Below, one piece after another: positions 1 to 64,000 of a DNA stretch of 64,000 nucleotides (positions are counted from its first letter, which is position 1; the number at the start of each line of letters is the position of its first letter). Source of the DNA: Escherichia phage EJP2. Under the pieces are notes generated by a model. That model was not told the origin of the DNA. It did not search any database and was given only the letters and a program-made list of their open reading frames with translations. Made by a program: the position numbers and the translations under genes. The stretch is taken from sequence record OQ411014.1. One strand, 5' to 3'.

Positions 1-1
1 C

Positions 2-538
2 TGCTTAGATGAGAATCAAACTCATCTTATTGAACTGGCAGAAGATGGTATCATTCTTGAAAAAGTACCTGATATTTTTTCTTATGATGAAGAGTACAGC
101 TTGAGTCTACTTGAAAAGATTCACCCTGATGCATCTAAAGAGTACGACCGCCGAGCGAAGATGGCACGTATCAACCATGAAGCAGACTCGGTTGTGTATA
201 CAACTCTAATGCAGATGCGGGAAGGGAGAGTTGAAGTTGCAGGTAAAGACAAGTACAATATGGTTTTCTCGAATGGATTATCAGTCTGGACTGAAAACCG
301 ATATTTTGCTTTCGGACACTTGACCAAGAACGACGACAATCCTCGGTTCAATACTGTTAGATTCAACTGGGAATATGAGCGTTACTCTAAATTCACATTC
401 ATGTGGCTGGTGGATGTTTATCTTGAACATTATGAGAATGAAGTATGGCGTGGTCGCCGTGCCATGTACTCACATGATGATATTCAAGATCAAGAACAAT
501 CTGAAAAACTAAGATTCAAGAATGCAATCACATGGTAA
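2..538 (+). CDS. hypothetical protein, 5' end probably outside window
   Basis: ORF-track start at 101 is a TTG; the frame stays open back to the window edge with no stop. No recognisable motifs. Confidence 0.45.
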   Translation, partial: CLDENQTHLIELAEDGIILEKVPDIFSYDEEYSLSLLEKIHPDASKEYDRRAKMARINHEADSVVYTTLMQMREGRVEVAGKDKYNMVFSNGLSVWTENRYFAFGHLTKNDDNPRFNTVRFNWEYERYSKFTFMWLVDVYLEHYENEVWRGRRAMYSHDDIQDQEQSEKLRFKNAITW

Positions 539-598
539 AAGAATATTATGATGCATGGATAACAGAGATTATGATATTCATGAATATTATAGACTCTG

Positions 599-784
599 GT
601 GTATTACAGTATGGTAATCCAAAAGCAACTCTTGAACTCTTACAGTACTGTCAAGAGGTTTGGTATCGCTGAGTTAGATGAAGAATATCATTACTTTCAA
701 GGTGAATTACTAAAATACTTCAATGATTACAATAACTCTAGGTACGTTCCTAGATTATTTTTCTTTCATTCTGAGGATATGTAA
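599..784 (+). CDS. hypothetical small protein
   Basis: 61-aa ORF with GTG start (alternative ATG at 611). Its stop overlaps the next start (TAATG). Confidence 0.3.
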   Translation: MYYSMVIQKQLLNSYSTVKRFGIAELDEEYHYFQGELLKYFNDYNNSRYVPRLFFFHSEDM

Positions 785-1233
785 TGACGTTAGAAGAATT
801 ACTAAGTACTCATAAGTACTACATTGATGATGATAATAAAAATATTTCGGCTATCATTTCTATGTTGAATACAAAGTACAACCTACATGGTAAGTCCCCT
901 AAAGCTGACGAAATTTTGGAATCACCGAAGAAATTTTTGATGTACAATCCAAAAACAAAGTGCATTCGACTTGTTGACAAAAGTTACTTAGCACCAGAAA
1001 CAACATTTACGGATATCGTCCGTGTGTACACTGGATTGCCATTCACTATCAATCATTTATTCGTTGAGGTGTACAGTACTGGAAGTCCTAATTACTGGAA
1101 TTATGCAGTACATAAAGGTGATGTAACACGTTACTTCAAACTGACCAAACTCAATGCTTGGCTTGAAGAAGAATACGTTGATACATCTGAAATGATCAAA
1201 ATTGAAGATTCGTACATACAAAATGTGAGATAA
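784..1233 (+). CDS. hypothetical protein
   Basis: 149-aa ORF, start overlaps upstream stop. No recognisable motifs. Confidence 0.55.
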   Translation: MTLEELLSTHKYYIDDDNKNISAIISMLNTKYNLHGKSPKADEILESPKKFLMYNPKTKCIRLVDKSYLAPETTFTDIVRVYTGLPFTINHLFVEVYSTGSPNYWNYAVHKGDVTRYFKLTKLNAWLEEEYVDTSEMIKIEDSYIQNVR

Positions 1234-1254
1234 CGTCACAAAATGTGATATAAT
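1225..1254 (+). promoter_or_regulatory. early sigma70-type promoter (GTGAGA -35, TGn extended -10 TATAAT)
   Basis: -35 1225-1230, TG 1246-1247, TATAAT 1249-1254. Member of the TTGAGA-N18-TATAAT family. Confidence 0.45.
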
Positions 1255-1282
1255 GGAATAACACACTAAAGAAGGAAACTAT

Positions 1283-1426
1283 ATGAAACTACTCCGTAAT
1301 AGCTTATTTGCGTTTTACATGGATTATCAAATCTCGCTAAAACTAAATCCAGTACTGACAGTACTAGGAACAGCCACTGTTGCAGCTTTCACTGCATGGT
1401 TAGTTACACTGTTTTGTGCTCTATAA
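1283..1426 (+). CDS. putative small membrane protein (47 aa)
   Basis: ATG at 1283 follows an AAGAAGGAAAC RBS and the early-promoter motif at 1225-1254. C-terminal hydrophobic stretch VLTVLGTATVAAFTAWLVTLFCAL. Absent from the ORF track because it is under 60 aa. Confidence 0.4.
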   Translation: MKLLRNSLFAFYMDYQISLKLNPVLTVLGTATVAAFTAWLVTLFCAL

Positions 1427-1441
1427 TCTTAGGATAACAAA

Positions 1442-2071
1442 ATGACAACTCACGTTAGGTATTATATTGCATATAATGGAAGACCAGTTCGTTCTATTGG
1501 ATTAGATCTTGAGCCAGTAATGTCTGTACAGACTAATCTATACTTCAGTACTGAAGAAGAAGCAGACTCTTTCATTATGACTAGGATTGCAACTGCGTCC
1601 ACTACACTTTATCATATTCATTTTGATTGTATTGATAAGTACTCAATCGTCAAAGAAATTGTTCAGTTGGAACCGTGCAGTACTAAAACTAATTATATGC
1701 GAAACTATACTCTAACTTGGTTGCGATTACTCGACCAGGATATCTGTACTGATTCTATGATTTCCACTACTATACGTGCGTTCGTCATGCGTGGGTTTAG
1801 TACATCAGGATTGGATTTAGAAGAAGTGAAAAACTTGATTTTGGGTAATCCAAAACTTCAAAAAACCATTGACAAACTTATTCCAAAGCATATAATCTCT
1901 AATATTGAAAATTACATGCAAGATGGTTTAGTCAATGCTCCGGTGGAAGAGCTTGAATTCTTGAATCTAACAATTTCAGATGAAATGAAATTTGATCTTG
2001 ACTTCGAAGAACTCTTCCCTTACAATAAGTTCAAACCAACAAAATGGGAAAATCATGGAACTAGTAACTGA
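1442..2071 (+). CDS. hypothetical protein
   Basis: 209-aa ORF. No recognisable motifs. Confidence 0.6.
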   Translation: MTTHVRYYIAYNGRPVRSIGLDLEPVMSVQTNLYFSTEEEADSFIMTRIATASTTLYHIHFDCIDKYSIVKEIVQLEPCSTKTNYMRNYTLTWLRLLDQDICTDSMISTTIRAFVMRGFSTSGLDLEEVKNLILGNPKLQKTIDKLIPKHIISNIENYMQDGLVNAPVEELEFLNLTISDEMKFDLDFEELFPYNKFKPTKWENHGTSN

Positions 2072-5216: not shown

Positions 5217-5549
5217 ATGCTAAATGTAAACGTTCAAGGTAATGTAGAAATCACTGACGCAATTCATGAACATATTCTGGCTGAAGCGGATCATCTAGAA
5301 AAGTACAGTACTGATAAAGTACTGGAACTTGATGTTCACGTGAAAAAAGAACACAAAACTCAATACACTGTAACAATCGTTGGTAACGGCAAATCCAGTA
5401 CTGCCAACGCTGCTGATTTATACAAAGCAATCACTGACTCCTTTGGTAAAATGGATAAAGTGCTTGGTAAAGATAAGAGTGTAAAAATCAGTCGCCGTAA
5501 CAATCCTGTTCATCCTGTTGAAATTGACTTGACAGAAGACGAAGAGTAA
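5217..5549 (+). CDS. hpf: ribosome hibernation promoting factor / RaiA (YfiA) homolog
   Basis: NVEITDAIHEHILAEADHLEKY...DLYKAITDSFGKMDKVLGKDK aligns along its length with the bacterial HPF/YfiA family. ATG at 5217 with AGAGAGGTG RBS. Confidence 0.75.
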   Translation: MLNVNVQGNVEITDAIHEHILAEADHLEKYSTDKVLELDVHVKKEHKTQYTVTIVGNGKSSTANAADLYKAITDSFGKMDKVLGKDKSVKISRRNNPVHPVEIDLTEDEE

Positions 5550-6139: not shown

Positions 6140-6242
6140 AGAAGACTGGGGCGTAGGTGGGGATTACAATCCATTTGAACCTGAAGAAAAAGAAGAGTCC
6201 CCATCGTGGTGGGATTGGGTTCGTGGATTATTCGGGCGATAA

Positions 6243-6657
6243 TATGAAAATAGAACCTGAACGCATTGCTAAACTAAAACAACTCATGGAACATACGTTA
6301 GAACTTCCACGAGAAAATCTAACATCATTCACAACCAAACCTTGGTGTACAGGTTGGTGGGTTAGTGATTATGTTTATGCTGATTATGACCACAACGAGC
6401 TAATGATTTGTGTACTGAAAAGTGACGTGGTGTGGGGACAGACTGGTAAGTTATACATAAGTTCAAATCACGTTCAATTGATAAAAACTGCACCACCGTT
6501 TACACTTAGCGTTCCGAGAATCAGTACTGAAGAAGAGTATTTTCAACAGTCAACACTTCATGATTTGACAAATTTGGACTTGGATTTCTTTTTGACTTGT
6601 AATAAACTCTATTCACTATGTTGCAGTTTACACACGATTGGGGATACAGATGTATAG
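6243..6657 (+). CDS. paralog-family protein 1 (conserved STEEE-YFQ-LHDL-LDLDFF C-terminus)
   Basis: First of four tandem paralogs. C-terminal ISTEEEYFQQSTLHDLTNLDLDFFL. Start set at ATG 6243 by alignment with paralog N-termini. Confidence 0.55.
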
Positions 6658-7042
6658 TCGTATGCTAAAAGAACTGAATGAACTTCTGGTGAATGTATTG
6701 GGATGGCCTGCTGATAATTACAGATACATCAGAGAACGTGATTTAGGAACCATCAGAGATTGCTGGGTGAATAAATTCACATTCGCAGAAGATAATTGTG
6801 GTGATGTTTCGGTATCTTTGTCTAAATGTTCGGATATTGATTTTTGTTACATCAAGATATTGGAAGATGCAGTGGAGTTCCGAAAAGGATTGTCTACGAT
6901 TTGGAGTTACCCACGATTGAGTACTGAAGAAGAGTTTTTTCAATTATCAGTACTGCATGATACATCTGGCTTGGATTTGGACTTCTTTTTGAATTGCACT
7001 AAACTATACAACCTGGGCAAAATTGCACTAATAGAGGGATAA
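6650..7042 (+). CDS. paralog-family protein 2
   Basis: C-terminal LSTEEEFFQLSVLHDTSGLDLDFFL. ATG at 6650 with GGGGA RBS. Overlaps the upstream stop. Confidence 0.55.
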   Translation: MYSRMLKELNELLVNVLGWPADNYRYIRERDLGTIRDCWVNKFTFAEDNCGDVSVSLSKCSDIDFCYIKILEDAVEFRKGLSTIWSYPRLSTEEEFFQLSVLHDTSGLDLDFFLNCTKLYNLGKIALIEG

Positions 7043-7043
7043 C

Positions 7044-7454: not shown

Positions 7455-7462
7455 GGATTATA

Positions 7463-7864
7463 ATGTACAATAGTGTAATGATGCAGCATTTCACTACAAT
7501 GATTGGTGCTGCCATGAATAGTCCTAAACTGAAAACGTTACGCATCATTGATGGTGCGTGCTGGATTACAGAAAATGCTTTTATCTGGATGCATGAGAGT
7601 CGTGATAAATTAACTATCACAATAAAGCCATCATTTAGTTTAGAAGAGATACTACAACATAGTAGTATTGATATCAAACATGATAGTATAGATATTCGTA
7701 ACTCCCATAACCCAAAAGGTATTAATATCCCACGTATTAGTACTGAAGAAGAGTACTTTCAACAAAGTACTATTCATGATTTATCAAATTTCAACCTTGA
7801 TTTTTTCAAACAATGTGCAGTACTGTTCGATAAAACATGGGATCAACTTACATGGTGTAAGTAG
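7463..7864 (+). CDS. paralog-family protein 4
   Basis: C-terminal ISTEEEYFQQSTIHDLSNFNLDFF. ATG at 7463 with GAGGA RBS. Confidence 0.55.
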   Translation: MYNSVMMQHFTTMIGAAMNSPKLKTLRIIDGACWITENAFIWMHESRDKLTITIKPSFSLEEILQHSSIDIKHDSIDIRNSHNPKGINIPRISTEEEYFQQSTIHDLSNFNLDFFKQCAVLFDKTWDQLTWCK

Positions 7865-7891
7865 TATTTTACATTATTATGAGGAACTAAA

Positions 7892-9001: not shown

Positions 9002-9002
9002 A

Positions 9003-9032
9003 TTGAGATATTTTCGAAAAAAGTGATATATT
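9003..9032 (+). promoter_or_regulatory. early promoter (TTGAGA -35, TGn TATATT)
   Basis: TTGAGA 9003-9008, TG 9024-9025, TATATT 9027-9032. Confidence 0.45.
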
Positions 9033-10882: not shown

Positions 10883-11215
10883 ATGGCTACTGAAAAAGCA
10901 CAAATCGTCGTAAAACTACTACACATTGCAGGTCAAGGTCCAGTACTAGCAGTACTACAAGGTGAAACCAACGATTCCCTAATCACCATGCATCCAGCAC
11001 AACTTGGTCAAGATGAGAATGGCGATATTCAAATCCTATCCTATCTTGGTGGTCTAGTTGCTGAAGATGCACCAGTAGTATTCATGAAGTCTAACATTGT
11101 TGCGGTATGTGAAGTTGAACCGACTCTAGGTAAAGAATACGTTTCTGCTGTAGAAGCATTGACAAAATCCTCTGTTGGTGTTATTATGCCTCCAGAAAAG
11201 AAAATCATTCTATAA
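10883..11215 (+). CDS. hypothetical protein
   Basis: ATG at 10883 with AAGGA RBS. No recognisable motifs. Confidence 0.5.
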   Translation: MATEKAQIVVKLLHIAGQGPVLAVLQGETNDSLITMHPAQLGQDENGDIQILSYLGGLVAEDAPVVFMKSNIVAVCEVEPTLGKEYVSAVEALTKSSVGVIMPPEKKIIL

Positions 11216-12468: not shown

Positions 12469-12504
12469 AGTACTTTTACAGTACTGAAGTTTCAATACAA
12501 TACT

Positions 12505-13285: not shown

Positions 13286-15931
13286 ATGGCTGATCTATTA
13301 TCACCAGGTGTAAGTGTAACAGTCACTGATGAGTCAATGAGCGGTGCTTCTGCTCCAGGGACTGTCCCACTTATCATCATTGCAACTGCACAAGACAAAT
13401 TGGTTCCAGGCAGCACATCTGTTGCACCAGGGACTCTCAAAGCGAACGCTGGTAAACTACAGCTACTAACTTCACAAAAAAATGCCCTTGACGTATTCGG
13501 GACACCTATTTTTCAGAAACATTTAGGTTCAGTAGTTCAAGGCGACGAATTAAACGAATACGGCTTACATGCTGCTTATTCATATTTGGGAATTGCAAAC
13601 CGTGCTTATGTAGTACGTGCTGACATCGACCTAGCACAGCTAGCACCAACTGGTACTGCACCAACTGGCCCTGTTACCAACGGTAAACTATGGTTAGATA
13701 CTACTGCAAGTCAAGTTGAAGCATATGTTGCTAAGAAAGATGACCCACAATCATTCTACGACTGGCAACTAAAACCAGTACGCATCGTTAGTGCGGCTGA
13801 TATTGCTGATGTTGATACTATTGGTCTAAACGTTGATGACCTAGTACTACGTTACAACCCAGCGAATGGTCAACTACTAATGTACAAATTTTCTGCTGCT
13901 GGTCTAGTTCAAGTTGAAACTTACCTATCACCAATCAACAAAGTACCATCAGGTATTGAATACAATGAAGGTGATATTTGGATTCGTGATGGTTTCACTA
14001 AATCTGGTTCTAACTACTTCGGTACTCGTTTTGTTATTAAACGTTATGCTTCTCTAACTCGCGTATGGCAGAATGTTGATACCTTTACTGGTACAAGTTT
14101 CTATGAAATTGAATCTAAAACTGGTGTAATGTCGTCTTCTTACATCACTGCACTATTCGATTATGATAGTAATAGTTTCTCCTTCTATATGCAACGTGCT
14201 TCATTACCTACCGTTACCGCTGGTGCAGTTCCAGTTGGTCAATCTTCGGTAAACACTGCTGCTGTTGATGGTTTCTTAACTGTTAATTATCTAAATAAAT
14301 CCGTTAAAGTACTAGCAGTACTACAAGGTCAACTAATTAATGCTGCTGTTATCATTGAAAATTTGAATAAGAGTTCAGTACTAATTAACGCAGGTTTCAC
14401 ATTCACTGGAACACAAGATGTTGTCATTACTAACCGTAATGGATATAGTTTTAAAGTGAGTCAATCAGACGAAGTGATTTTTAGCCAACAAGAACTCAAG
14501 AAACTAACTCAAGATAGCAGTAACTATGCACTAGTTAACGTTAACAACCTAGTAACTTCAGCAACCGAACCACGTGCTGTTGCACCAGAAGGTACTTACT
14601 GGTATGACTTTAGTAACTCTGACAATCTTGAAGTAACTCTTTATACTGCTAATACCAGTACTGAAGATTGGGATCTAGTAATTGCTAGTGACAAGTACAT
14701 CCAAGTTGATGAACCTGCTGCTGACCGTTCTTTCTGGGTTCTACCACTATCTCAAGGTATTGATGGTTATGAGTTCTATCGTAACGTAAATGGTGAGTGG
14801 ATTAAACTAGATCCAGCAGACCAAAGTACTCTAAACGGTATGATTTACGAAGACTTCAATGACGAAGTACCAAGTGCTAACCTATACCAAAACGGTATGC
14901 TTGCAATTGACCTAGGCAATACTGAAGGTGTTGTTAAACAAATGGTTAATGGTAAGTGGGTAGTAGTAAGTGGTGTTGCTATTGATGGTTCTGGTCTATT
15001 TGGTCGTCATGCACAACGTCAAATGATTGTTGAAGCTATGGCATCTGTTATCGTTAGCAACGAAGCGATTCGTTCTGAGACTGTCGATTTCAACCTAGCG
15101 GTTGCTCCTGGTTATGTTGAACTACTAGATGAACTAGTAACTCTAAACACTGACCGTAAAGAAACATCTTTCTTGATTACTGATGTTCCAGCACGTTTGA
15201 AACCTTCCAGTACTGACGTACAAGAATGGGCTACTAACGCTAACAACGCTCCAAGTAACGGTGATATCGGTCGTGTAACTGCATACGATTACGCTGCACA
15301 ATACATGGGTTGGTGCTTAGGTACTAACGTTGATGGTGAAGAAGTTGCTATTCCTGGTTCTTCTGTTGCACTACGTACCTATGCGTACAGTGACAGTGTT
15401 TCTTATGTATGGTATCCACCAGCAGGTACTGCACGTGGTGTTGTTTCCAACGCTGCTTCAGTAGGCTTCATCAATGATGAAGGCGAATATGAGCCAGTAG
15501 TTTACAACCAAGGCCAACGTGATATCATGTATATCAACAAGATTAACCCGATTGCAATGCGTCCAAACCGTGGTCTACTAGTTTATGGTGATAAGACACT
15601 AACTGCGAACGAAACTTCAGCACTAGCGAACGTAAACGTAGCACGTCTAATCGTATACATTCGTCGTCAACTAGACATTCTTGCTGAACCATTCCTATTC
15701 CGTCTAAACACCCCAAGTACTCGTCAGGAGTTCGCTGGTGTAGTGAACAGCTTCCTAGCAGAAATCGTTCAACTAAATGGCCTATACGACTTTACTGTTG
15801 TGTGTGATGAATCAAACAACACCCCAACTCGTATTGACCGTACTGAACTATGGATGGATATTGCGATTCAACCAACTCGTACAATTAACTACATTTATGT
15901 ACCAATTCGTATCGAGAAAACTCAAGCATAA
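13286..15931 (+). CDS. tail sheath protein (T4 gp18-like, 881 aa)
   Basis: N-terminus MADLLSPGVSV and C-terminus VVCDESNNTPTRIDRTELWMDIAIQPTRTINYIYVPI match contractile sheath termini. GGAGG RBS and downstream terminator. Confidence 0.92.
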   Translation: MADLLSPGVSVTVTDESMSGASAPGTVPLIIIATAQDKLVPGSTSVAPGTLKANAGKLQLLTSQKNALDVFGTPIFQKHLGSVVQGDELNEYGLHAAYSYLGIANRAYVVRADIDLAQLAPTGTAPTGPVTNGKLWLDTTASQVEAYVAKKDDPQSFYDWQLKPVRIVSAADIADVDTIGLNVDDLVLRYNPANGQLLMYKFSAAGLVQVETYLSPINKVPSGIEYNEGDIWIRDGFTKSGSNYFGTRFVIKRYASLTRVWQNVDTFTGTSFYEIESKTGVMSSSYITALFDYDSNSFSFYMQRASLPTVTAGAVPVGQSSVNTAAVDGFLTVNYLNKSVKVLAVLQGQLINAAVIIENLNKSSVLINAGFTFTGTQDVVITNRNGYSFKVSQSDEVIFSQQELKKLTQDSSNYALVNVNNLVTSATEPRAVAPEGTYWYDFSNSDNLEVTLYTANTSTEDWDLVIASDKYIQVDEPAADRSFWVLPLSQGIDGYEFYRNVNGEWIKLDPADQSTLNGMIYEDFNDEVPSANLYQNGMLAIDLGNTEGVVKQMVNGKWVVVSGVAIDGSGLFGRHAQRQMIVEAMASVIVSNEAIRSETVDFNLAVAPGYVELLDELVTLNTDRKETSFLITDVPARLKPSSTDVQEWATNANNAPSNGDIGRVTAYDYAAQYMGWCLGTNVDGEEVAIPGSSVALRTYAYSDSVSYVWYPPAGTARGVVSNAASVGFINDEGEYEPVVYNQGQRDIMYINKINPIAMRPNRGLLVYGDKTLTANETSALANVNVARLIVYIRRQLDILAEPFLFRLNTPSTRQEFAGVVNSFLAEIVQLNGLYDFTVVCDESNNTPTRIDRTELWMDIAIQPTRTINYIYVPIRIEKTQA

Positions 15932-16741: not shown

Positions 16742-16767
16742 TAATAAAAGTACTTTTCAGTACTACA

Positions 16768-32995: not shown

Positions 32996-35900
32996 TTATA
33001 CGTTACGTTGTGCAATAAACACGTCAATGGTAGAACCTACACCGCTGTATACTAACTGACAGATAGATACAGAGTTTGGAGTGGTGTTAATCGCAGTATC
33101 AGCACCAATCACACTATATGGAGGTGGTAGAGTTAGCGAGTGGTTACCAGTTGCGTCTTGTGTTACATATACGAACCAAGAACCTGCATATCCTGGGGTG
33201 ATTGGTAGGTTACCAACGGTAGTATCACCTGTTAGGGTAATGTTATACACGTTAGAAGTACCATCAGGAGTCCAAGTACCAGTTGCAGAAGCAGCCGGAG
33301 CAGCTTTAACTAGGTATTTGCTAGTACTTACCGATTCAGTTACTAGGTCGCCGATATCAGCAGTTAGTGTACCAGTTACTGTTAGGTTGTTAGCATTAAT
33401 TGTACCAGTACTATCAATATCAACAGCAGTTACTTTACCAGTGAAATCGGAGGTTCCAGATACAGTAAGGCTTGTAGCAGTGATTGCACCTGTGGTTACA
33501 GCAGCTAAGGTAGAAGTACCAGTTACTGTTAGAGTATCAGTTTCTAGACCGCCAGTAATTGCAGCACCATCAGCACTAACAGTTAGTTTACCACCAGTAG
33601 TTAGTGTAGTACCTACGCTCGCCGCAGCAGAGAAAGTAGCAGTACCAGTGCTGGATAGAGTACCAGTTACTGTGGTTGCACCAGTAATTGCAGCACCATC
33701 AGCACTAACAGTTAGTTTACCACCAGTAGTTAGTGTAGTACCAACTGTTGCAGCACCAGTAACTTCAAGAGTTACACCTTTCAAGAAGGAAGTGGAAGTA
33801 ACAGATTGTGCAACTAGATCAGAAGTACTTTGGTCTAGTGTACCAATGATACGACCATTAACAGTAAAGTCACCAGTACAAACTGCGTTACCGTTAAGCT
33901 GTAGGTTGTTGTTTACAGAACCACTTGCACCGATAACAGCAGAGTCAATTGTTGCTTGACCTTTAACTTCGAGTGTAGTACCAACAGATACCGCTTGGGA
34001 AGTTGTTACAGACCGTGGAGAAATATCACGACCAGTTAAGTCGATTTGAGCAGTGATAGTACCATCAACATCCAAGTTACCTGTGATGTGGGTGTTACCA
34101 GAAATCTCAGCAATATATTCTTCTTCGTCCCATACTAGAGTACCTACGTGTAGGTTTGTGGTAGAGGTCTTCTTGAAAGAAGCGGTTGCAGTTGCAGCAC
34201 CGTTCTGTGCGATATTACCAGCAGTTACTGTTAGGTCACCAGTAGTAATTGTTGCACCGTTATCAGAAGTTACAGAACCAAATTTACCTGCACCTGAAGC
34301 AGTGATTGCACCACCTAGGGTTGTTGCACCAGTAGTTACGGTTAGACCGTTATCAGAGGTTACAGAACCAAATTTACCTGCACCAGTACTGGTTAGAGTA
34401 CCACCAACAGTTGTGTTGCCAGTTACACCTAGTGTAGTACCAACAGTTGCACCAGCAGCAGTAGAAACACTATTAACAGATAGGTCAGCACCCGCGAGGT
34501 TTAGACCACCAGCAGGAGTGAATGTACCATTAACGGTCATGTCACCAGTTGCTACCGTGTTACCTGTGATATCTAGTGATGCTAGAGTTGCTTTACCTGA
34601 AGTACTTAGAGTACTAACAGATGTTGCATCAGCAGTTACATCAGCTAGGGTAGATGCACCAGTTACATTTAGTGTAGTACCGATATTTGCACTGTTTAGA
34701 GTTGCTAGACCAGAAGTACTTACAGTACTTAGGGAAGTATTACCAGATACACCTAGGGTTGTAGTAACGCTTGCAGCGTTCGCATTGACAGTTCCTAGAG
34801 TAGATACGCCAGTTACTTCTAGAGTAGTGTTAACTTTAGCACCGTTTAGTGTTGCCAAACCAGTAGTCGTTAGTGCATCAGTAGTTACATCAGCTAGGGT
34901 AGATGCACCAGTTACATTTAGAGAACCACCAACAGTTGTGTCGTTAGTACTGGATAGTGTTAGTGCACTTAGGTTAGTTGCACTTAGGTCGAATTGACCA
35001 TCAACAGTCAAATCACCAGTTACATGAGCGTTACCGAGAGAGTTAAGAGACTTAACAGTTACATCAGTTGTGCTTAGGTCGATTGCTCCAGCAGTTAGTG
35101 TACCAGTTGCATGGAAATCACCAGTTACGTTGGTAGATTTAGCAAGTTGTACAGTAGTTCCAGCAGTTGTAAAGGAAGCAGCAGATACAGCACCAGTTGC
35201 GGATACAGATGAAGCACCAATTGCACCAGCAGTTACACCAGCAAGAGTAGTTTCACCAGTTACTGCTAGAGTACCAGAAGCAGTTACATCAGCCAGGGTT
35301 GAAGCGGCAGATACAGTTACAGCACCTAGAGTTGCTTCGTCGCTTGCTAATTTAGGGAATGTATTTGTTTTAGCAGCATCAGTAGATACAAAACTTAAAG
35401 CAGTTACATCAGCACCAGATAAGTCAACAGTACCAGATACAGCTAGGTTGCCACCGATTGTTGCACCTTCAGTAGTCGTAATAGACTTGGAAGCAATATC
35501 AACAGAAGATAGGTCAAAACCACCAACTGGGGTAAATGTCCCATTAACTGTTAGGTTTTTATCAGCAACAACATCACTTGCTAGAGTTACTGTGCCAGCA
35601 CCAAGTGGAGCAGCTTGAACAGTTGCGGATTCTACCGAAGCACCTTTAACAATACCAGTTGCAGTAATGTTTGTTGCAGAGATATCACCAATGGATTCAA
35701 TACCGCCATTAGGCTTGAAAGAACCAGTTACAGTTAAGTCTTTTGCAGCGACTGCATTACTTGCCAATGTTACTGTACCAGCACCAGCAGCAGCACCTTG
35801 AATAGATGGAACAGTTGCAGTTGCAGCACTTACATCACCAGTTGCAGCGAAAGATACAGCACTGATATCACCAGTTGCATCAATATCACCAGCATTTACA

Positions 35901-38605
35901 GTACCAGCAGTGATGGTAGTACTAGATAGAGTTGGGATGGTGCTTTGTGCAACAGTTGCAGTAATAGATTTAACATTAATATCCGCAGCACTTAGGTCGA
36001 ATGTACCGTCAACAACAAGGTTTCCACCAACGTTTACGTTACCTGTAGTGGTTACAGATGCAGCATCAACAGCAGTAGTACTTAGGTCAATTGAAGCTGG
36101 GGTTAGAACACCAGAAATAGTTACGTCATTTGCAAAAGTGGTATTACCAGTAATGCTTGGAACAACTAATGAATCAGCAGTTACTGAAGCTAATGTTGAA
36201 GCACCAGTTACGCTTAGAGATGCAGCAGATGCAGCACCGATTGCAGAAGCACCAGTTACATTTAGAGAACCACCATTAACTTCACCAGTTGCAGTGACAG
36301 AAGCAGCAGTTACAGCACCAGTTGCCGCGACAGATTCAGCAGAAACGCCAGCAGTTGCTACAACAGAGTTCGGTGCGATATCAAGACCGTCAACGTTTGC
36401 AGCAGCAGTTACACCAGTAGTAGTACCAGTTACAACTAGGTCTTTAACAGTTACAGTTTGACCATTAACAGTTACGTTACCACCAATTGTTGCACCAGCA
36501 GTTGCAGTGATTTCACCTGTTACGCCTAGAGTACCACCAACAGTTGCGTTGCCAGTTACAGCAGCGTTACCACCTACAGATAGATCAGTACCAACAGTAG
36601 TGGTGGTTACAGATTCTAGAGTATTACCATTAAGGGCAGCAGTTGCTACAACAGAGTTAGGTGTTAGGTCTTGACCACTAACATCAACAGTTAGACCAGT
36701 TACAACACCAGTAAATTCAACATCAGCAAGAATTGATTTACCATCAACTTTTAGTTGTGGTTGTGCAGTACCGATAGTACTGTTACCTTGGATGTGAACA
36801 TAATCCATAGTGGATTTGCCTAGTGCAGTTAGACCAGCAGTACCACCAACGTTACCAACAGATGCGTTCTGTAGTAGTGCTTTATCAGCTACAAGGTCAG
36901 AAGTTGCGATTTTGTATGGTTCGATGCTGGATTTGGTGTCGCTTGGGCGAGCCGGATCGTTATATGCAAATTGTAAAATACCGTGGTTACCAGATTCGCC
37001 ATCAATAACGTTTAGAGTACTAAAGTTAGCGATTGAAGTTCTTGCACCAGTTAAGTTACCAGATAGAGTTAGGTTTTGTAGAGTACTTGGACCAGAAACA
37101 TTTAGAGATGTTGCATTAATATCAGTAAATGAAAGACCAGATACTGCACCAGTAATAATCAAATCACCAACTGTGGTTTTTTGTAGTACTGTATCACCAG
37201 TTACTTCTAGTTTTGGTGTTGCTTCACCAATAGTACTGTTACCAGTAATGCTTAGGTAATCAATAGTTGCTTTACCTAGTGCTTTTAGACCAGCAGTACC
37301 TGCTACATCACCAACTTCAGCAGCTTTAAGAACAGCTTTGTCAGCTACTAGATCAGAAGTTGCCATTTTGTATGGTTCGATACTTGATTTTGTGTCATTT
37401 GGACGAAGTGTGTCATTATAAGCGAATTGTACAATGCCGTGGTTTCCAGCAGTACCGTCATCAACAGTAAAAGTACTGAAGCGTGCTACTGAAGAGTTAC
37501 CACCAGTTAGGTTGCCACTCATGTTAACGCCAGCTAGAGTTGATGCACCAGATACGTTTAGAGTTGCTACGTTTAGGTCAGTGAATGAAAGACCAGATAC
37601 TGCACCAGTAATTGTTAGGTTACGAACTGTAGTATCTTGTAGTACTGATTTACCAGTTACTTCTAGGAAGTTATCAGCAGTACCAATAGTACTGTTACCA
37701 GCAATTTTTAGGTAATCGATTTTTGCATTACCGAGAGCGTGTAGACCGTGGTCATCGCCACCACCAACAACACCAACGGTTGCTACGTCAGTTTGGATAT
37801 CGTTGGTATCAATTTCTTGAGTACTAACTTTGTACGGCTCAAGGCTAGTTTTGATATCAGAAGGACGTAGTGGGTCGTTATATGTGAACTGAACACTACC
37901 AGTTTGACCGGAAACACGATATTGGTTTACGGATACAGTACTGTTTGCACCAGTTACGTTACCTTGGATAGTAGTTGCACCTTTAATGTTTACGTTGTTA
38001 AGATCACTTAGTGTTTTAACTTCGATGTTATTGAAAGTACCAGCATCCATAGTGTAAGTGCCACTTAGAGTACCATTGATTTCCACATCACCTAGTGTTG
38101 TTTTGCCAGTTACGTCTAGAGTACTGTCAAGTACTGCTGCACCTTTAGCATGTAGGGCTTCAGTAGTTGTACTACCTAGAGCTACAGTACTAGTTGGTTC
38201 AGTAGAAAGATTGCCATTAACTTTTGCATTACCAGATACGGTTAGGCTATCAGCAGAAGTTTCTTTAAATGAAGCACTACCAGTAGTTTGAGTAATATTT
38301 GAATTAAAAGTTGCTTCGGCATCAACAGCCAAAGTACCTTTAACACTTACTGTATCAGTTAGAGCGTCACCAAGAACGGTATTACCAGATACGTTAAGAT
38401 TTCCGAGATTAGAAGTACCAGTACTTGTAATGTCAGCGAATTGAGCAGAACCCGTCACTGTGATAGCAGTGAATGTGGCATCTGCGAAAGAAACAGTGCC
38501 TTCTACAGAAAGATTTTGCTTGAATACAGCATTACCCTTCAATAGTAGGTCTTTGTCAATCGTTGCTCCACCGAGAACGCCTAGATCAGTTTTAATTGAA
38601 TACAT
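32996..38605 (-). CDS. giant repetitive tail fiber protein (1869 aa)
   Basis: GGAGGG RBS. Long runs of VTG/SGN/ATG beta-helix-like repeats and three ~150-aa tandem repeat units. Confidence 0.7.
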   Translation of the reverse strand: MYSIKTDLGVLGGATIDKDLLLKGNAVFKQNLSVEGTVSFADATFTAITVTGSAQFADITSTGTSNLGNLNVSGNTVLGDALTDTVSVKGTLAVDAEATFNSNITQTTGSASFKETSADSLTVSGNAKVNGNLSTEPTSTVALGSTTTEALHAKGAAVLDSTLDVTGKTTLGDVEINGTLSGTYTMDAGTFNNIEVKTLSDLNNVNIKGATTIQGNVTGANSTVSVNQYRVSGQTGSVQFTYNDPLRPSDIKTSLEPYKVSTQEIDTNDIQTDVATVGVVGGGDDHGLHALGNAKIDYLKIAGNSTIGTADNFLEVTGKSVLQDTTVRNLTITGAVSGLSFTDLNVATLNVSGASTLAGVNMSGNLTGGNSSVARFSTFTVDDGTAGNHGIVQFAYNDTLRPNDTKSSIEPYKMATSDLVADKAVLKAAEVGDVAGTAGLKALGKATIDYLSITGNSTIGEATPKLEVTGDTVLQKTTVGDLIITGAVSGLSFTDINATSLNVSGPSTLQNLTLSGNLTGARTSIANFSTLNVIDGESGNHGILQFAYNDPARPSDTKSSIEPYKIATSDLVADKALLQNASVGNVGGTAGLTALGKSTMDYVHIQGNSTIGTAQPQLKVDGKSILADVEFTGVVTGLTVDVSGQDLTPNSVVATAALNGNTLESVTTTTVGTDLSVGGNAAVTGNATVGGTLGVTGEITATAGATIGGNVTVNGQTVTVKDLVVTGTTTGVTAAANVDGLDIAPNSVVATAGVSAESVAATGAVTAASVTATGEVNGGSLNVTGASAIGAASAASLSVTGASTLASVTADSLVVPSITGNTTFANDVTISGVLTPASIDLSTTAVDAASVTTTGNVNVGGNLVVDGTFDLSAADINVKSITATVAQSTIPTLSSTTITAGTVNAGDIDATGDISAVSFAATGDVSAATATVPSIQGAAAGAGTVTLASNAVAAKDLTVTGSFKPNGGIESIGDISATNITATGIVKGASVESATVQAAPLGAGTVTLASDVVADKNLTVNGTFTPVGGFDLSSVDIASKSITTTEGATIGGNLAVSGTVDLSGADVTALSFVSTDAAKTNTFPKLASDEATLGAVTVSAASTLADVTASGTLAVTGETTLAGVTAGAIGASSVSATGAVSAASFTTAGTTVQLAKSTNVTGDFHATGTLTAGAIDLSTTDVTVKSLNSLGNAHVTGDLTVDGQFDLSATNLSALTLSSTNDTTVGGSLNVTGASTLADVTTDALTTTGLATLNGAKVNTTLEVTGVSTLGTVNANAASVTTTLGVSGNTSLSTVSTSGLATLNSANIGTTLNVTGASTLADVTADATSVSTLSTSGKATLASLDITGNTVATGDMTVNGTFTPAGGLNLAGADLSVNSVSTAAGATVGTTLGVTGNTTVGGTLTSTGAGKFGSVTSDNGLTVTTGATTLGGAITASGAGKFGSVTSDNGATITTGDLTVTAGNIAQNGAATATASFKKTSTTNLHVGTLVWDEEEYIAEISGNTHITGNLDVDGTITAQIDLTGRDISPRSVTTSQAVSVGTTLEVKGQATIDSAVIGASGSVNNNLQLNGNAVCTGDFTVNGRIIGTLDQSTSDLVAQSVTSTSFLKGVTLEVTGAATVGTTLTTGGKLTVSADGAAITGATTVTGTLSSTGTATFSAAASVGTTLTTGGKLTVSADGAAITGGLETDTLTVTGTSTLAAVTTGAITATSLTVSGTSDFTGKVTAVDIDSTGTINANNLTVTGTLTADIGDLVTESVSTSKYLVKAAPAASATGTWTPDGTSNVYNITLTGDTTVGNLPITPGYAGSWFVYVTQDATGNHSLTLPPPYSVIGADTAINTTPNSVSICQLVYSGVGSTIDVFIAQRNV
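33552..33742. repeat. 62-bp exact direct repeat pair within the fiber gene
   Basis: Identical 62-mers at 33552-33613 and 33681-33742, encoding duplicated SVGTTLTTGGKLTVSADGAAITG. Confidence 0.65.
34257..34383. repeat. near-exact direct repeat of about 37 bp within the fiber gene
   Basis: CGTTATCAGARGTTACAGAACCAAATTTACCTGCACC occurs at about 34257 and 34347, encoding GAGKFGSVTSDNG twice. Confidence 0.55.
36560..37950. repeat. three tandem ~450-bp repeat units inside the giant fiber gene
   Basis: Encoded segments (I/S)VQF(T/A)YND..RP(S/N)D.K(T/S)S(L/I)EPYK ... IDYL.I.GNSTIG recur three times. The nucleotide similarity is visible but diverged. Confidence 0.6.
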
Positions 38606-48878: not shown

Positions 48879-51800
48879 TGATTAATCCAATAAGAATTAC
48901 AGGTGCAATATCCAAACTATCAGAATAAGTACTCAATGGGATTGGTTCATAACCATCACCGTATACTGCAATTTCATTAGTGTTACCTAAATTCAATCCA
49001 GTACTGGTATACGTTACATCCTTTTCGTAATAATTCTGAACAGTACCGTTATAAGCTCGAACAACGAAGTTGTTTTTGCGAACAAGCATTTGTTCTGCAT
49101 TAGATAGGATAATATCGTCAGGTACAACACCAGGCATTGTAGCGATACCATTTTCATAGGTCATGGTGCTTGCCATCTTCGGCTGACTTACGTGAGTGAA
49201 GCTGTCAAACATTGACTTATAAACAACAGTAACAGTACTGTTAGTGTTAATATACACACCATCAACTAGTGGTTTACTATAGATCCAAGAACCATTGTTA
49301 GCAGTAGGGTTAATTTCAGCTACATCGTATTCAAATACTGAAATTTCCAACGCGTCGGTCATTTTAGTACGAACCAATTCACTTAGTACACCTTTACCGT
49401 ACACTGGTAGGTAATATCCATTATCAACCACAGTTCCATCTTCTAGTGTTTGTGTCTCATTAGTACTGTACCATACATCATAGTCATTGGTAGTTAGTTC
49501 TGGTTCATAATTACCACCAATTAAGGAAGTGTCATAGAACACATCATAATCTAGAGCATCGACTCTGTAAGAACGGTTATTAGTATAACGAGTAATTCCA
49601 CCAGCACTAAACTCTGGGTCATTGAAAGATGTAACTCTAACAATGTTGATACTAGTTGGTTTGTTCTGGTTGTAAAGTGATTCATCAGTACTGTTATAAG
49701 TACTAGTGAAAGTTAATCCACCAATAGTTACAGTATTACCAGATACCGAAGTTACTTTAAACAACTTAGGACGATTAGCATCTTTAATTGTTGCTACACT
49801 CAATACAGTTTTCCAAGAACCATCGTTAATAGCGACTGCGTAATCTGAATTGTCTGGGACAAATACAGCTACCGTTTCGCCAACAACGAAATCATTATCA
49901 CCGTCAAGTTCAACAACACCACTTACTGAAGTTACGTTCTTAATACGATATGAATATTGAATTTCATTCTTTTCCAAAATGCTTCTATTCATGTATTCAA
50001 GAGCAACATCATAACGTGGAATACTTACAAGGGCTTCTGAGCGATTATATGGGTTTTGTACGATATAACCTTCAATATTAAAGTTACCTTGATCACGTAA
50101 TTGTGTCTGTACTGAAGTATCAAATCCATATCCATCAACTGTGAATCTTAGCTGTGCCATATCACGTTTAGATGGGTTAAGTTCTGAAATGTCTACAAAT
50201 ACAGGATCGTTAGTACTGTTAGCGACACCAACAACGGAGTTAATAATAGTTTTAGTTTGTGATTCTAGAGCTAAGTTATCGAATGCGTTTTTATCATCAA
50301 AGAATACTTCTTTATTCAAGCCTGACATGATTTGTAAGAAATCACTATATAGTGGGTTCTTATCATCTTCTGGAACGTCATCAAGTGATGGTTGGCTTAG
50401 GCGAACCATATCCCCATCAGTGATATACACTTCTTCCATATATTCTTCTATGCCAACATTCGAAGGAATGCTATAATCTTTTCCTGGAGTAGTTTCACTC
50501 ATTAGGAAAACATATTTCCTAGGCATCAACACTACTGCATAAGCATCAACATCAAGATTCTCTAATACTTTCTCTGCTGCACTATACGGGTCAGTTTCAT
50601 CAGGATTATAAGTCCCTCTAAGTGCTGATAGAACGTGTACTGCATCAGTATAGAAACGATTAGATTCTGGATTATCATCAGTTTCAGGGATTACATATTT
50701 CCATGTATATAAACCGTATTCATATTCCATGTACTCTAGAATCTCAATGTGAGAGAATCCAGGGTTTGCTTCCTTAACTTGATCATAAATCAAATCATAC
50801 ATTGGTTTGCTGTAAGAGATATAACCATAGTTTTCACCATTGCTTGCACTAAATCCAAACGGCAACCTTGTGCTTGGGTTATCACTCAGTACTAGACCTT
50901 TAAATGGACAACCTACTTCAGAACCAATAGTTTCATCAGATTTGGAAGTTGTTAGCTTCAAACGGTTTGAAAGCGTGTTGTACTGAACATAGTTGCGTAC
51001 TTCACTAACCGATTCAGATTTCTCTTCTGCTTCTGCAATTACACGATTAAGTGTAGCTGTAAATTCATCAGATGCTTCAACATCATTAATTAGTGTTGCA
51101 TACATTTGGTCTAAACCATATTTCAAACCACTACTAATATTCATGTTCGGATAGTACTGCGTAATACCGTTCATGATTAATGTTTCCAACTCAGCATTAT
51201 TAATTTCAGGGAAAGTATATGCATAACGCTGGAGCATGTAGTGGGAGCCTTTTACAAGGAAGTCACCAGTATTAGATTGGTATTTCTTGTTCACGTTTTC
51301 TAGTGTTGTTATATCTGCCATATCGGAAGATGGTTTGCACTGGAAGTTGTCAAAGTCAAGAATAACATCAATCTCTTGGAAACGGCGGTTTGGTAGTACG
51401 AAGTTATTTGGTAGTGAGCCTACGATTTCCCACTTCTGACTTACATCGTTGAATTGAGCATATTCGTAATCCCAAATATCTTTTTGTGTTTTAACCCAAG
51501 CACCATCAACATAGATATAACCGTTAGGATCTAAATCGTTTAATAGACCGTTGATTTCATCTTCATCAGATGTCTTCTGCTCTATTTGTGAACGGATTTT
51601 AGTTCTGTATGGTTTCACTTCTTCAAAGTACTGTACGATTTCATTTATTAAATTACCATCAGTAGTTGATCTTTGTTGTAGTGATTGGTCTAGACCAATA
51701 ATATAAATGTAAGAGGTTTTGAATACCCAGTCCACGACTTTCTGCTCAGTGTGTACGTACTTAACCATGTCAAATACTACAGTACTTTGTACAGAGTTGA

Positions 51801-58887: not shown

Positions 58888-58922
58888 TTTATTCTCCATA
58901 AAATTCATTTCTTCATTTGTTT

Positions 58923-62426: not shown

Positions 62427-62496
62427 AATTAATCCTTGCGTTCTAATATGAGTTATATATCTTACGTTTTCTATGCACACGTATTATGAATTTATT

Positions 62497-62527
62497 TATC
62501 CAAAAAGAAAGACACCCGAAGGTGTCT
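62497..62527 (-). terminator. terminator hairpin with UUCG tetraloop
   Basis: Minus-strand reading AGACACC-TTCG-GGTGTCT followed by TTCTTTTT. Confidence 0.5.
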
Positions 62528-62533
62528 TAGAAA

Positions 62534-62926
62534 TTATGCGGCATTTGAAACAATTGCCATCTTTTCGTTCGCTTCTCTGTCGAACTGTATGAATAGAGTT
62601 TCTTCGGTGTCGAGTTCCACATAGTAAAGGAACAAGTTAACACGAAAACCTCTATCAGTACTTAGGACTTCAACATATTGGAGTGAAACTCTAGGGTCAC
62701 CAGCAACAATGCGACGAGCATCCGCTTCTAATAGATTTTTATTACTATAAATGTCCAATTCAAATAATAAATCCCACCCTACAAATCCATATTGTGCATC
62801 CATAGCACGTTCACCTTTTCTGGTGTTGAAGTGGTTTAATAGATCGCGTTTGACTAGCTCCACATCATAAAGAACTTCAGTTCTTCCCACCTGTGGGGAT
62901 GCAAACCCCTTGTATATCACTGCCAT
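62534..62926 (-). CDS. baseplate wedge protein, gp25/GpW-like
   Basis: NTRKGERAMDAQYGFVGWDLLFE ... RVSLQYVEV pattern as in T4 gp25-family proteins. Confidence 0.7.
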   Translation of the reverse strand: MAVIYKGFASPQVGRTEVLYDVELVKRDLLNHFNTRKGERAMDAQYGFVGWDLLFELDIYSNKNLLEADARRIVAGDPRVSLQYVEVLSTDRGFRVNLFLYYVELDTEETLFIQFDREANEKMAIVSNAA

Positions 62927-62941
62927 ATTATTTTATCCTTA

Positions 62942-63430
62942 TTATTGGGATTCTACAATACGAGCTAATTTCTCTGCACGTGAAGTAGTTTGCTTATACC
63001 AAGTACTATCACGCATTTGACGTCCAGCTTCTTTATAATCACCCGCACCCATAGCAGCTAATGCTTTTTTGAAACCTAGAACACGACGTTTACCCATTTG
63101 AAAACACATTTGCCACAATACACGCTGGAGATCAATACCACCTTTCATACCGAATTGCTCATAAATCTCTTTTGCGTCATTAAATGCAACAGTTGCGTCT
63201 TTAATTAGTAGTGCATCGCCTTCTGACTCAGTTAAACCATTAGGAAATGTTTCGCCATTTACTAGCAAGTGACCATAACCAATAGTTGGTAAACCTAGAC
63301 TGTCTTTATATACATGAAACCGCCCGTTTTTAAAATATCCCTTCTTAGTTTGATAAGCGATAGTACCTTCATGCTCACGTACTTCTTTGTGGAAGATACT
63401 ATCGTCATTTTTTAAAACCCAATTGCTCAT
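62942..63430 (-). CDS. T4-lysozyme-like muramidase (GH24)
   Basis: HEG ... YKDSLGLPTIGYGHLL (Glu, Asp and Thr equivalents present) and CFQMG ... DSTWYKQTTSRAEKL colinear with T4 lysozyme. Confidence 0.8.
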   Translation of the reverse strand: MSNWVLKNDDSIFHKEVREHEGTIAYQTKKGYFKNGRFHVYKDSLGLPTIGYGHLLVNGETFPNGLTESEGDALLIKDATVAFNDAKEIYEQFGMKGGIDLQRVLWQMCFQMGKRRVLGFKKALAAMGAGDYKEAGRQMRDSTWYKQTTSRAEKLARIVESQ

Positions 63431-63463
63431 AATTTACCCTCTGTTATGTTAGTGGTAAATTAT

Positions 63464-64000
63464 TTATGCACATGCCTCGATTCTGCGTGCTAATTCCTCA
63501 ACACGTCTACGAGTTTGTCTATACCAAGTACTGTCACGCATTTCATGGGCTGCTAATTTGTAATTGCCTGCTGCTAGTGCTTTTAAGAAATTGGTAAACC
63601 CACGAACGCCACCACCACGTGTTTTACTACCAGCACCAAGCTGGAATACCATCTCTGTCAGTACTATCTGTGCCATATAAGGTGTTTGCATCTTATATTC
63701 AGCATAAATTTGACATGCAGAGTTTACGGATGAAACCAAATCTTTTTTAAGAATAGTTTCAGCTTCAGCTTCTGTAATACCATTAGGGAAACCACCATCT
63801 GCTCTAGTTAGGAAGTGACCATAACCAATTGTCAGACCATGAGCATCAACATAAGGCCAGAATCTACCATTACGGAAGGTTCCAACTGATGTTTGGTATC
63901 CAATGTTACCTTCAAACTCTTTAATATCCGAAACAAGCTGGTTATCACTCGGTTGTACCTTCCAACCAATCTTGGATTTGTCAATAGAACTCAAATCAAC
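63464..64000 (-). CDS. T4-lysozyme-like muramidase paralog, start at or beyond window edge
   Basis: FEGNIGYQ ... HGLTIGYGHFL ... DSTWYRQTRRRVEEL. The only in-window start is a TTG at 63994 and the frame is open to nt 64000. Confidence 0.7.
   Translation of the reverse strand, partial: VDLSSIDKSKIGWKVQPSDNQLVSDIKEFEGNIGYQTSVGTFRNGRFWPYVDAHGLTIGYGHFLTRADGGFPNGITEAEAETILKKDLVSSVNSACQIYAEYKMQTPYMAQIVLTEMVFQLGAGSKTRGGGVRGFTNFLKALAAGNYKLAAHEMRDSTWYRQTRRRVEELARRIEACA

Follow-up and report, generated by a model that had tools for sequence, protein, structure and literature searches.

The 64,000-nucleotide stretch of Escherichia phage EJP2 analyzed here (sequence record OQ411014.1; hereafter, the window) represents the late part of the genome of an enterobacterial Rak2-like jumbo myophage. 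Throughout its length (1..64000, both strands) runs an array of 193 copies of the palindrome AGTACT, 55 of them in the form CAGTACTG, or about one site per 330 base pairs (bp) by exact count. The best explanation for this array is that AGTACT is a highly iterated palindrome that is kept by selection in double-stranded DNA across the clade of enterobacterial Rak2-like jumbo phages.

The closest match to the window is Erwinia phage Hallingskeid, with 77% nucleotide identity, and none is closer among 50,697 GenBank phage records. The next-best matches are the Asteriusvirus coliphages PBECO4 and 121Q, at approximately 73%, and the gene order of the window agrees with that of all three phages. Genes were called in this analysis as the longest open reading frames (ORFs), and several of their identities were confirmed by Pfam in a scan of 30 window proteins. 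The first block of genes encodes, in order, RNA ligase, lysozyme, a ribosome hibernation factor, tRNA nucleotidyltransferase and a Nudix hydrolase. It is followed by a second block with the neck protein, deoxynucleoside monophosphate (dNMP) kinase, the tail sheath (13286-15931), three tail-tube paralogues and the head completion protein, and by a third with virion proteins, a MoxR ATPase and its vWA partner, and thymidylate synthase. The last block consists of fibre and baseplate genes, one of which encodes a protein of 3344 amino acids (aa).

With 193 occurrences in 64,000 bases (3.0 per kilobase [kb]), AGTACT ranks first among the 4096 hexamers. Base composition predicts 21.1 occurrences, and 100 shuffles that preserve dinucleotides yielded 25.0±4.5, with a maximum of 35. 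The first-pass annotation of this sequence, made by eye, had proposed a roughly ten-fold excess, and exact counting confirms this observation and shows a stronger signal. Its local tallies were also accurate, as the exact numbers are 12 in positions 1-3000, 8 in 13.3-16 kb and 13 in 16-20 kb. Higher-order models reduce the excess without removing it: 47 sites are expected under a second-order Markov model and 84 under a third-order model. The same is true of synonymous shuffles that permute codons within each gene, and therefore retain every protein and the codon usage of each gene. In 300 such shuffles, AGTACT occurred 53.8±5.9 times and never more than 73 times, and this null is generous, because the codon usage that it retains is already inflated by the motif. 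The octamer CAGTACTG is more extreme still, with 55 copies against 0.8 expected from composition and 6.8±2.1 in the synonymous shuffles. The true core is longer than the hexamer, and CAGTACTG is its preferred form in this lineage.

The excess is found in every codon phase. We counted 107, 26 and 54 sites in phases 0, 1 and 2, compared with 31, 6.1 and 10.5 under the synonymous null, so that enrichment by phase ranges from 3.4-fold to 5.1-fold. When every site is oriented by the sense strand of its gene, C occupies position -1 in 51% of sites and G occupies position +6 in 47%, and these flanking nucleotides are enriched at any codon position. For example, in phase 2, the G at +6 falls on a third codon position and reaches 61% against a background of 12%, which forces CTG, a rare leucine codon in the window. 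The signal therefore sits in double-stranded DNA and is symmetric, in agreement with the first-pass annotation, which had argued for a DNA-level signal instead of a codon-pair effect. The motif also bends both codon choice and protein sequence. Almost two thirds of Ser-Thr dipeptides (107 of 168; 64%) are written AGTACT, and these dipeptides are themselves in excess (168 versus 119 expected; Thr-Ser, 123). Among Val-Leu dipeptides, 52 of 125 lie inside the motif. A codon or dipeptide cause is ruled out as a sufficient explanation by the synonymous and codon-permutation shuffles and by the analysis of separate phases.

Comparison with relatives indicates that the sites turn over, and that those already present are maintained. 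When the window and Hallingskeid were aligned by codons (73% identity), 30 of the 72 window sites recurred in Hallingskeid, compared with a baseline of 22% for hexamers. Where the amino acids are conserved, all six nucleotides of the site are identical in 26 of 29 cases (90%), compared with 38-39% for other hexamers. This retention at synonymous positions bears out the proposal in the first-pass annotation that the palindrome has a positive role. At sites specific to one lineage, the two sequences often differ at several bases and at one amino acid. Moreover, the residues at phase-0 sites are conserved in only 33% of cases, compared with an average of 59%, which implies that new sites arise through amino-acid change.

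The AGTACT excess is a trait of the clade, and is not specific to this genome or its host. Relatives were sampled as segments of 22-48 kb, with only Hallingskeid also analyzed whole, and negative controls were segments of up to 50 kb. In Hallingskeid, PBECO4, Munch, BF, CBB, GAP32, Muenster and XbC2, the ratio of observed to expected sites is 5.6 to 9.2, and AGTACT ranks between first and sixth among hexamers in each of the eight. In the whole Hallingskeid genome (366 kb), it is the top hexamer, with 1313 copies versus 118 expected (11-fold), and CAGTACTG is the commonest octamer, with 412 copies. The word is depleted in the more distant Pseudomonas relative PA5oct (1 versus 8.4 expected) and in T4 (4 versus 13.5). 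It is depleted also in 50 kb of Escherichia coli K-12 (3 versus 11.6 expected), where its density is 0.06 per kb, so that phage and host differ approximately 50-fold. The favored flanks vary within the clade: the window, Hallingskeid, PBECO4 and Muenster favor C..G, and Munch, BF and CBB favor A..T. The flank G..C is rarest everywhere. We found no report of AGTACT enrichment in the literature, including papers on RaK2, CBB, PA5oct and Hallingskeid, although these searches were partly ill-targeted and many subscription papers lay outside their coverage.

The first-pass annotation had observed that such enrichment runs counter to the usual depletion of palindromes in phages, and this depletion is extreme here. 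In Hallingskeid, 22 of the 64 palindromic hexamers do not occur at all, although each is expected 21-50 times. The purged words include all eight palindromes composed of G and C only, as well as CAGCTG, CTGCAG, CCATGG, GGATCC, GTCGAC, GAGCTC, CTCGAG and GGTACC. The window lacks this same set, as do PBECO4, Munch, BF, CBB, GAP32 and XbC2, but T4 and PA5oct contain it at approximately the expected frequency. AAGCTT is absent from the window (0 versus 21 expected); Hallingskeid has 93 copies.

A specific context for AGTACT was found in the early regions of relatives. Site density falls along the Hallingskeid genome, from 5.7-7.6 per kb over the initial 30 kb of small early genes, through 3-4 per kb in the central part, to 1.8-2.7 per kb among the late structural genes, which are the counterpart of the window. 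Everywhere, 56-66% of Ser-Thr dipeptides are spelled AGTACT, but early proteins are richer in Ser-Thr. Within the initial 30 kb, the density of sites between genes is 12.9 per kb. On reading the Hallingskeid intergenic spacers, we identified two families of near-consensus, sigma-70-type early promoters that incorporate the motif. The first has the form C-AGTACT-A-TTGACA-N9-GAT-AGTACT-GG-CATAAT, and the second has the form A-AGTACT-TGCAt-N9-TC-AGTACT-GTATAAT. The architecture A-AGTACT-TGACA/TGCAA-N9-TTC-AGTACT-GTATAAT is present in three genera. The two copies of AGTACT lie 20-22 bp apart, such that one abuts or overlaps the -35 element and the other abuts the -10 element.

Members of the second promoter family, with 86-94% identity, are found in 74 phage records, each of which has 6-21 of them, often in the terminal repeat. 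In Muenster and Yersinia phage fHe-Yen9-03, both copies of AGTACT are as invariant as the TATAAT of the -10 element, and the spacer between them varies. The -35 and -10 elements annotated in the fHe-Yen9-03 record coincide exactly with the promoter elements recognized here. The pattern was also found in ten IMG/VR stretches, nine of which have 5.3-6.9 sites per kb and one of which has 3.0. Paired symmetric sites at fixed positions over core promoter elements, as expected of an operator, are found in the relatives only. As a separate observation, the leader 3' of many of the early promoters (Hallingskeid 5-20 kb, the Muenster terminal repeat and fHe-Yen9-03) contains TTGAAACGA/TGAAACG, which matches the "-35" of a divergent promoter class published for CBB and GAP32.

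Within the window itself, sites are spread with little regard to genes. Their spacing is near-Poisson and slightly even (variance/mean ratio of 0.96 at 1 kb and 0.71 at 2 kb), and the largest gap is 1.5 kb. Strand, position within a gene, and conserved versus accessory status had no effect on density in the window, and no gene departs strongly from the mean (smallest P approximately 0.04 before correction for 58 genes). The gene for the 1869-aa fibre contains 25 sites (4.5 per kb), and that for the 3344-aa virion protein has 33 sites in 10 kb. Intergenic sites do exist, as the first-pass annotation had claimed, but only four are truly intergenic (12469, 12480, 16749 and 16759), and the sites at 1351 and 1360 fall inside a small ORF that was missing from the list of ORFs.

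Exact searches recovered all of the closely spaced pairs previously listed. Pairs with starts 9-11 bp apart do recur in the window (10 versus 1.7 expected), but this excess is specific to the window and was not seen in relatives. More broadly, the window has 14 pairs at 9-14 bp versus approximately 3.4 expected, and 2 gaps of 15-38 bp versus approximately 13 expected; neither the excess of tight pairs nor the deficit of 15-38 bp gaps is present in the eight relatives. Tight pairs with a 15-38 bp exclusion zone were therefore rejected as a functional unit, being strong in the window and absent from all eight relatives.

Two of the pairs are intergenic. At 12469..12485 (no strand assigned), AGTACT-TTTAC-AGTACT lies directly 3' of the stop codon of the neck/adaptor gene, and this pair has no equivalent at the corresponding position in Hallingskeid or PBECO4. 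Its folding energy is only -4.9 kcal/mol. At 16749..16764 (no strand assigned), AGTACT-TTTC-AGTACT follows the first tail-tube gene, and lies upstream of a real GC-rich terminator (16771-16800) and of a late promoter-like word, GCTAAATAA (16803). The candidate role of AGTACT pairs as terminators or RNA hairpins was discarded, because their folding is weak (-4.9 kcal/mol), they have no U run, and real GC-rich terminators adjoin them. We note that, in the stretches 15948-15970, 16005-16020, 16771-16800 and 16803-16814, conserved GC-rich intrinsic terminators are followed by the T4-late-like promoter words GATAAATA and GCTAAATAA, and that this layout of terminator and promoter after the sheath and first tube genes is kept in all eight of the relatives.

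The remaining pairs lie in genes. On the plus strand, AGTACT-GAC-AGTACT at 1351..1365 is contained in an ORF of about 50 codons (CCA GTA CTG ACA GTA CTA, encoding P V L T V L), and its hairpin has a predicted energy of -8.3 kcal/mol. A pair at 5307..5323 (plus strand; starts 11 bp apart) is in the ribosome hibernation factor-like gene. On the minus strand, two pairs (34601/34610 and 34715/34724; 34601..34729) are in repeats of the 1869-aa fibre gene, a pair at 38120..38135 (starts 10 bp apart) is in the fibre gene, and one at 49687..49704 (starts 12 bp apart) is in the gene for the 3344-aa virion protein. The exact search also found tight pairs at 805-820 and 8790-8808. Three sites occur within 33 bp at 7739..7771 (plus strand), in the last of four tandem paralogues.

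Some of these genes merit comment in their own right. The four tandem paralogues (6157-7864) have approximately 135-165 codons, are 30-47% identical to one another and have no Pfam match; each retains AGTACTGAAGAAGAG at the corresponding position (6523, 6920, 7326 and 7739). The 3344-aa protein is encoded by a single ORF (48874-58908), and its counterpart in Hallingskeid is a virion structural protein of similar size. Adjoining this ORF is a gene for a ClpA/ClpB-type double-AAA ATPase of 761 aa (46555-48840).

One further repeat concerns the origin of individual sites. The 22-mer AGTACTAGCAGTACTACAAGGT (V L A V L Q G) occurs on the plus strand at 10942..10963, in the gene at 10874-11215, and an identical copy, which the first-pass annotation had also recognized, is found on the plus strand at 14308..14329 in the tail-sheath gene, with its second AGTACT at 14317. 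At this second site, the GTTCCT (Val-Pro) of four relatives has become GTACTA (Val-Leu). These three clustered substitutions, which cause one amino-acid change (Pro to Leu), yield a 22-mer that is identical to the copy 3.4 kb away in an unrelated gene. The sheath 22-mer looks like the product of a short ectopic gene conversion seeded on the common AGTACTAGCAGT, with the copy at 10942-10963 as the likely donor. Elsewhere, identity between sites beyond the motif falls off approximately geometrically, and the exceptions are paralogues, internal repeats and this one 22-mer. A mobile mini-element or templated copying was rejected as a source of the sites, because extended identity of their flanks is near geometric.

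What might read this word? The candidate that we favor, tentatively and with somewhat less than even confidence, is a putative phage-encoded, symmetric, dimeric DNA-binding protein, for which AGTACT would be the recognition site. Five observations fit such a reader: the octamer is symmetric, its flanks drift between lineages, modification is not seen, genome-wide maintenance of the sites costs protein sequence, and the promoter pairs are about two helical turns apart around the -35 element of the strongest early promoters. The drift of flank preference between subclades is expected if the reader evolves with the phage. Because the density of sites is 2 to 8 per kb in the phages and only about 0.06 per kb in the host, a protein that bound AGTACT as a symmetric dimer would be directed almost exclusively to phage DNA, and its binding across the genome might mark or organize that genome. 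At the strong early promoters of the terminal-repeat region, where the -35 element is flanked by two copies separated by 20-22 bp, the same protein would also control early transcription, most simply by acting as a repressor that shuts these promoters off. Among the roles suggested in the first-pass annotation, a binding site for a phage protein thus gives the best fit (symmetric octamer, drifting flanks and paired promoter copies in relatives), although no binding protein was found. A further role on that list, a recombination or packaging signal, is neither favored nor contradicted by the present data. We infer that the reader exists, that the phage encodes it and that its binding has these effects from the pattern of the sites.

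Several results weigh against this proposal. No recognizable DNA-binding domain was detected by Pfam in 30 window proteins, or in 30 proteins from the early region of Hallingskeid; the matches in the two sets included a ParE-like protein, a DksA/TraR zinc finger and the Dps/ferritin-like DUF5856. In these phages, some three quarters of all genes lack annotation. The promoter arrangement is absent from the window and confined to the early or terminal-repeat region of relatives, and only about 3% of sites are embedded in promoters, so the promoters are a clue to the reader and not the cause of the excess. The promoter copies might even be a side effect of general pressure on the free positions of a duplicated promoter family. 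In addition, conservation of sites alone cannot separate selection from repair that protects existing sites, and most controls are samples of 22-50 kb, not whole genomes.

Two further features of Hallingskeid are worth recording. The gene annotated as a "starvation-inducible transcriptional regulator" (8245-8691 of the Hallingskeid segment) encodes the DUF5856 protein, which has weak ferritin/Dps-like similarity and is also found in PBECO4. It lies approximately 3 kb upstream of the region that matches the start of the window, and a Dps-like DNA-coating protein is possible. Between 23.5 and 33 kb, adjoining a virion protein gene, are eight tandem paralogues annotated as "regulator of chromosome condensation" (RCC1-like repeats).

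A more speculative extension of the dimeric reader, which we consider possible but unlikely, is that AGTACT serves as a self-identity code written in the sequence, replacing base modification as the means of telling phage DNA from host DNA. These jumbo phages have T4-like ancestry but no hydroxymethylcytosine. The same protein may then silence the early promoters of the terminal repeat, and might shield or organize the phage genome, or cause host DNA, from which the word is missing, to be shut off or degraded. With 22 palindromes purged, the whole palindrome content of the genome may amount to a designed contrast to the host.

Among other explanations, the one that fares best, yet is improbable in our judgment, is that AGTACT is a cis signal for an enzyme of DNA transactions, such as a primase or topoisomerase II site, a transient nick that loads a clamp or starts recombination-dependent replication, or a Chi-like signal for a phage helicase-nuclease. 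A palindrome would function in either orientation, and the regular distribution of sites, roughly one per 300 bp irrespective of genes, fits a process that involves the whole genome. Hallingskeid encodes machinery of this sort (a T4-type replisome, primase, topoisomerase II, UvsX/UvsY, a gp46/47-like nuclease and endonuclease VII), and the 22-mer of the sheath gene resembles a short ectopic conversion that started at AGTACT. However, such a signal leaves unexplained the fixed, paired positions around the -35 element of early promoters, and extended identity of flanks between sites is rare. Also, known primase sites are trinucleotides. Nicks at about 1300 sites would have broken sequencing reads, but a nanopore study reported no nick-type drops in coverage for Hallingskeid or Kaldavass, though it described such drops for another phage (PMC11780129).

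A neutral drive, in which biased mismatch repair or gene conversion makes or restores AGTACT, or in which motif-bearing DNA recombines preferentially, seems to us distinctly unlikely. Drives of this kind have been proposed for HIP1, for very-short-patch repair in E. coli and for uptake sequences. Many site positions are lineage specific, including some reached through amino-acid change, density is higher where protein constraint is lower, and the site at 14317 seems to have been created by a short-patch ectopic conversion event. Klebsiella phage Muenster has a gene annotated with a Vsr-like endonuclease domain, but this gene is missing at the corresponding locus in the window and in Hallingskeid. 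(In Muenster, this domain, similar to PDB 1CW0, is part of a 667-aa protein encoded at 7251-9254 of the segment, inserted between the neck and dNMP kinase genes.) A specific conversion pathway should deplete near-matches, and none of the 18 one-mismatch neighbors of AGTACT is depleted in the window, which argues against such a pathway and led us to reject a conversion drive as the source of the excess. Neither a cognate methyltransferase nor methylation at the motif was found in Hallingskeid (PMC11780129), existing sites are conserved in position well above background, and a drive leaves the promoter architecture unexplained. For HIP1, the same pattern of conservation was taken to favor selection (PMC5861425).

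It is very doubtful that a host protein of the Enterobacterales reads the motif. The example to consider is SlmA, a nucleoid-occlusion factor with a 12-bp site, GTGAGTACTCAC, that is built around an AGTACT core (PMC3020112); capture of SlmA on phage DNA would block cell division. The enrichment occurs in phages isolated mainly on Enterobacterales and is absent from the Pseudomonas relative PA5oct. SlmA, however, requires G and T at positions 1 and 2 and a purine at position 3, and a full match (GTRAGYRCTYAC) occurs zero times in all phage sequences examined, including the 1313 sites of Hallingskeid. Half-sites with GTR are at chance levels (8 of 386 in the window and 33 of 2626 in Hallingskeid), and the flank that SlmA prefers, with G before and C after the core, is the least used everywhere. 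Flanks that vary among subclades are also not predicted for a conserved host factor. Capture of SlmA was rejected because the flanks that it requires are absent or disfavored at AGTACT sites.

Assessment of DNA modification, another role raised in the first-pass annotation, can draw on published data. Palindromic hexamers are typical methyltransferase targets, the abundance of HIP1 tracks cognate orphan methyltransferases (PMC4390886), and these phages do encode methyltransferases. Yet a nanopore comparison of native and amplified DNA found Hallingskeid to be modified only at GATC and CCWGG, and Kaldavass at one further motif, TGCAT (PMC11780129). Modification at AGTACT is therefore not detectable in these relatives. 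The two predicted methyltransferases of Hallingskeid, a C5-cytosine enzyme and a Dam-family enzyme, correspond to one observed motif each, and the cognate enzyme that the first-pass annotation had suggested seeking was not encountered. Pfam scans of 30 window proteins detected no methyltransferase domain and no endonuclease with a specificity for AGTACT; the Hallingskeid genome was not searched whole for a ScaI-like endonuclease. Methylation of AGTACT is unlikely. That the motif is a modification target at all, by ScaI-type N4-cytosine methylation or hypermodification, has in our view only a slight probability, as modification by itself would lift avoidance and would not build an 11-fold excess.

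Least credible is an effect on codons, peptides or RNA (a favored codon pair for Ser-Thr, a motif in the peptide, or AGUACU acting in mRNA as an element or hairpin), which could appeal to the 55% of sites that are AGT-ACT in phase 0 and to tight pairs able to form small hairpins, but which is contradicted by synonymous shuffles that give 54 sites, not 193, by equal or greater enrichment in the other two phases, by flanks that are symmetric in the sense orientation, by densities of up to 12.9 per kb in promoters and noncoding DNA of relatives, by hairpins that are weak (-4.9 kcal/mol) and sit beside real terminators, and by the fact that tight pairs are not a feature of the clade.

The closest known phenomenon is HIP1 (GCGATCGC) of cyanobacteria (PMC4390886; PMC5861425). 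Both HIP1 and AGTACT are the commonest words of their length, occur in genes in all frames and in intergenic DNA, lack any gene-level function, show positional conservation beyond background, and reside in genomes that otherwise avoid many palindromes. The traits used to recognize HIP1-type elements, namely hyper-abundance, presence in all frames and in noncoding DNA, and conservation beyond background, were each observed for AGTACT. Unlike HIP1, AGTACT belongs to a virus and not a cell, is an AT-rich word, occurs 2 to 8 times per kb, forms part of a conserved promoter architecture, and has neither a cognate methyltransferase nor detected methylation. To our knowledge, HIP1 itself has been without a known function for 30 years.

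Other iterated elements share fewer properties with AGTACT. The uptake sequences of Pasteurellaceae (USS) and Neisseriaceae (DUS) and the recombination signal Chi are over-represented, oriented and non-palindromic, and are read by an uptake receptor and by RecBCD, respectively. As with these elements, the density of AGTACT separates own from foreign DNA (about 50-fold between phage and host). Unlike them, AGTACT is a palindrome with no orientation, and there is no sign of uptake or of exonuclease control. The stoperators of mycobacteriophage L5 are about 30 asymmetric, intergenic sites of 13 bp, oriented with transcription in a temperate phage. AGTACT resembles them in occurring at early promoters as well as scattered through the genome, but it forms about 1300 symmetric, mostly intragenic sites in a virulent phage. 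The SlmA site GTGAGTACTCAC is, like AGTACT, a dispersed palindrome with this core, and is read by a dimeric helix-turn-helix protein; it differs in that the flanks required by SlmA are absent and disfavored in the phages. Finally, SPO1 TF1 and phi29 p6 are abundant phage proteins that bind the phage genome and also repress early promoters, with TF1 recognizing hydroxymethyluracil DNA and p6 recognizing bendability. A genome-wide preference for phage DNA combined with special sites at early promoters is what we propose here, but the analogy is functional only, as no homologue was found and no family membership is claimed.

If the interpretation of AGTACT as a selected, iterated palindrome is correct, it would be the first highly iterated palindrome described in a virus. 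It would also provide a tractable model of a HIP1-like element, in a lytic phage of about 350 kb that infects E. coli and relatives, with approximately 1300 sites, cousins that serve as negative controls, and a defined promoter context. This interpretation predicts that a sequence-specific protein is encoded among the approximately 75% of genes that lack annotation, and that these phages would be extremely sensitive to AGTACT-specific restriction systems. Several of the relatives are candidate therapeutic phages, and the motif offers a one-word diagnostic for the clade. More generally, the interpretation suggests a way for a large phage whose DNA is ordinary to distinguish itself from its host.

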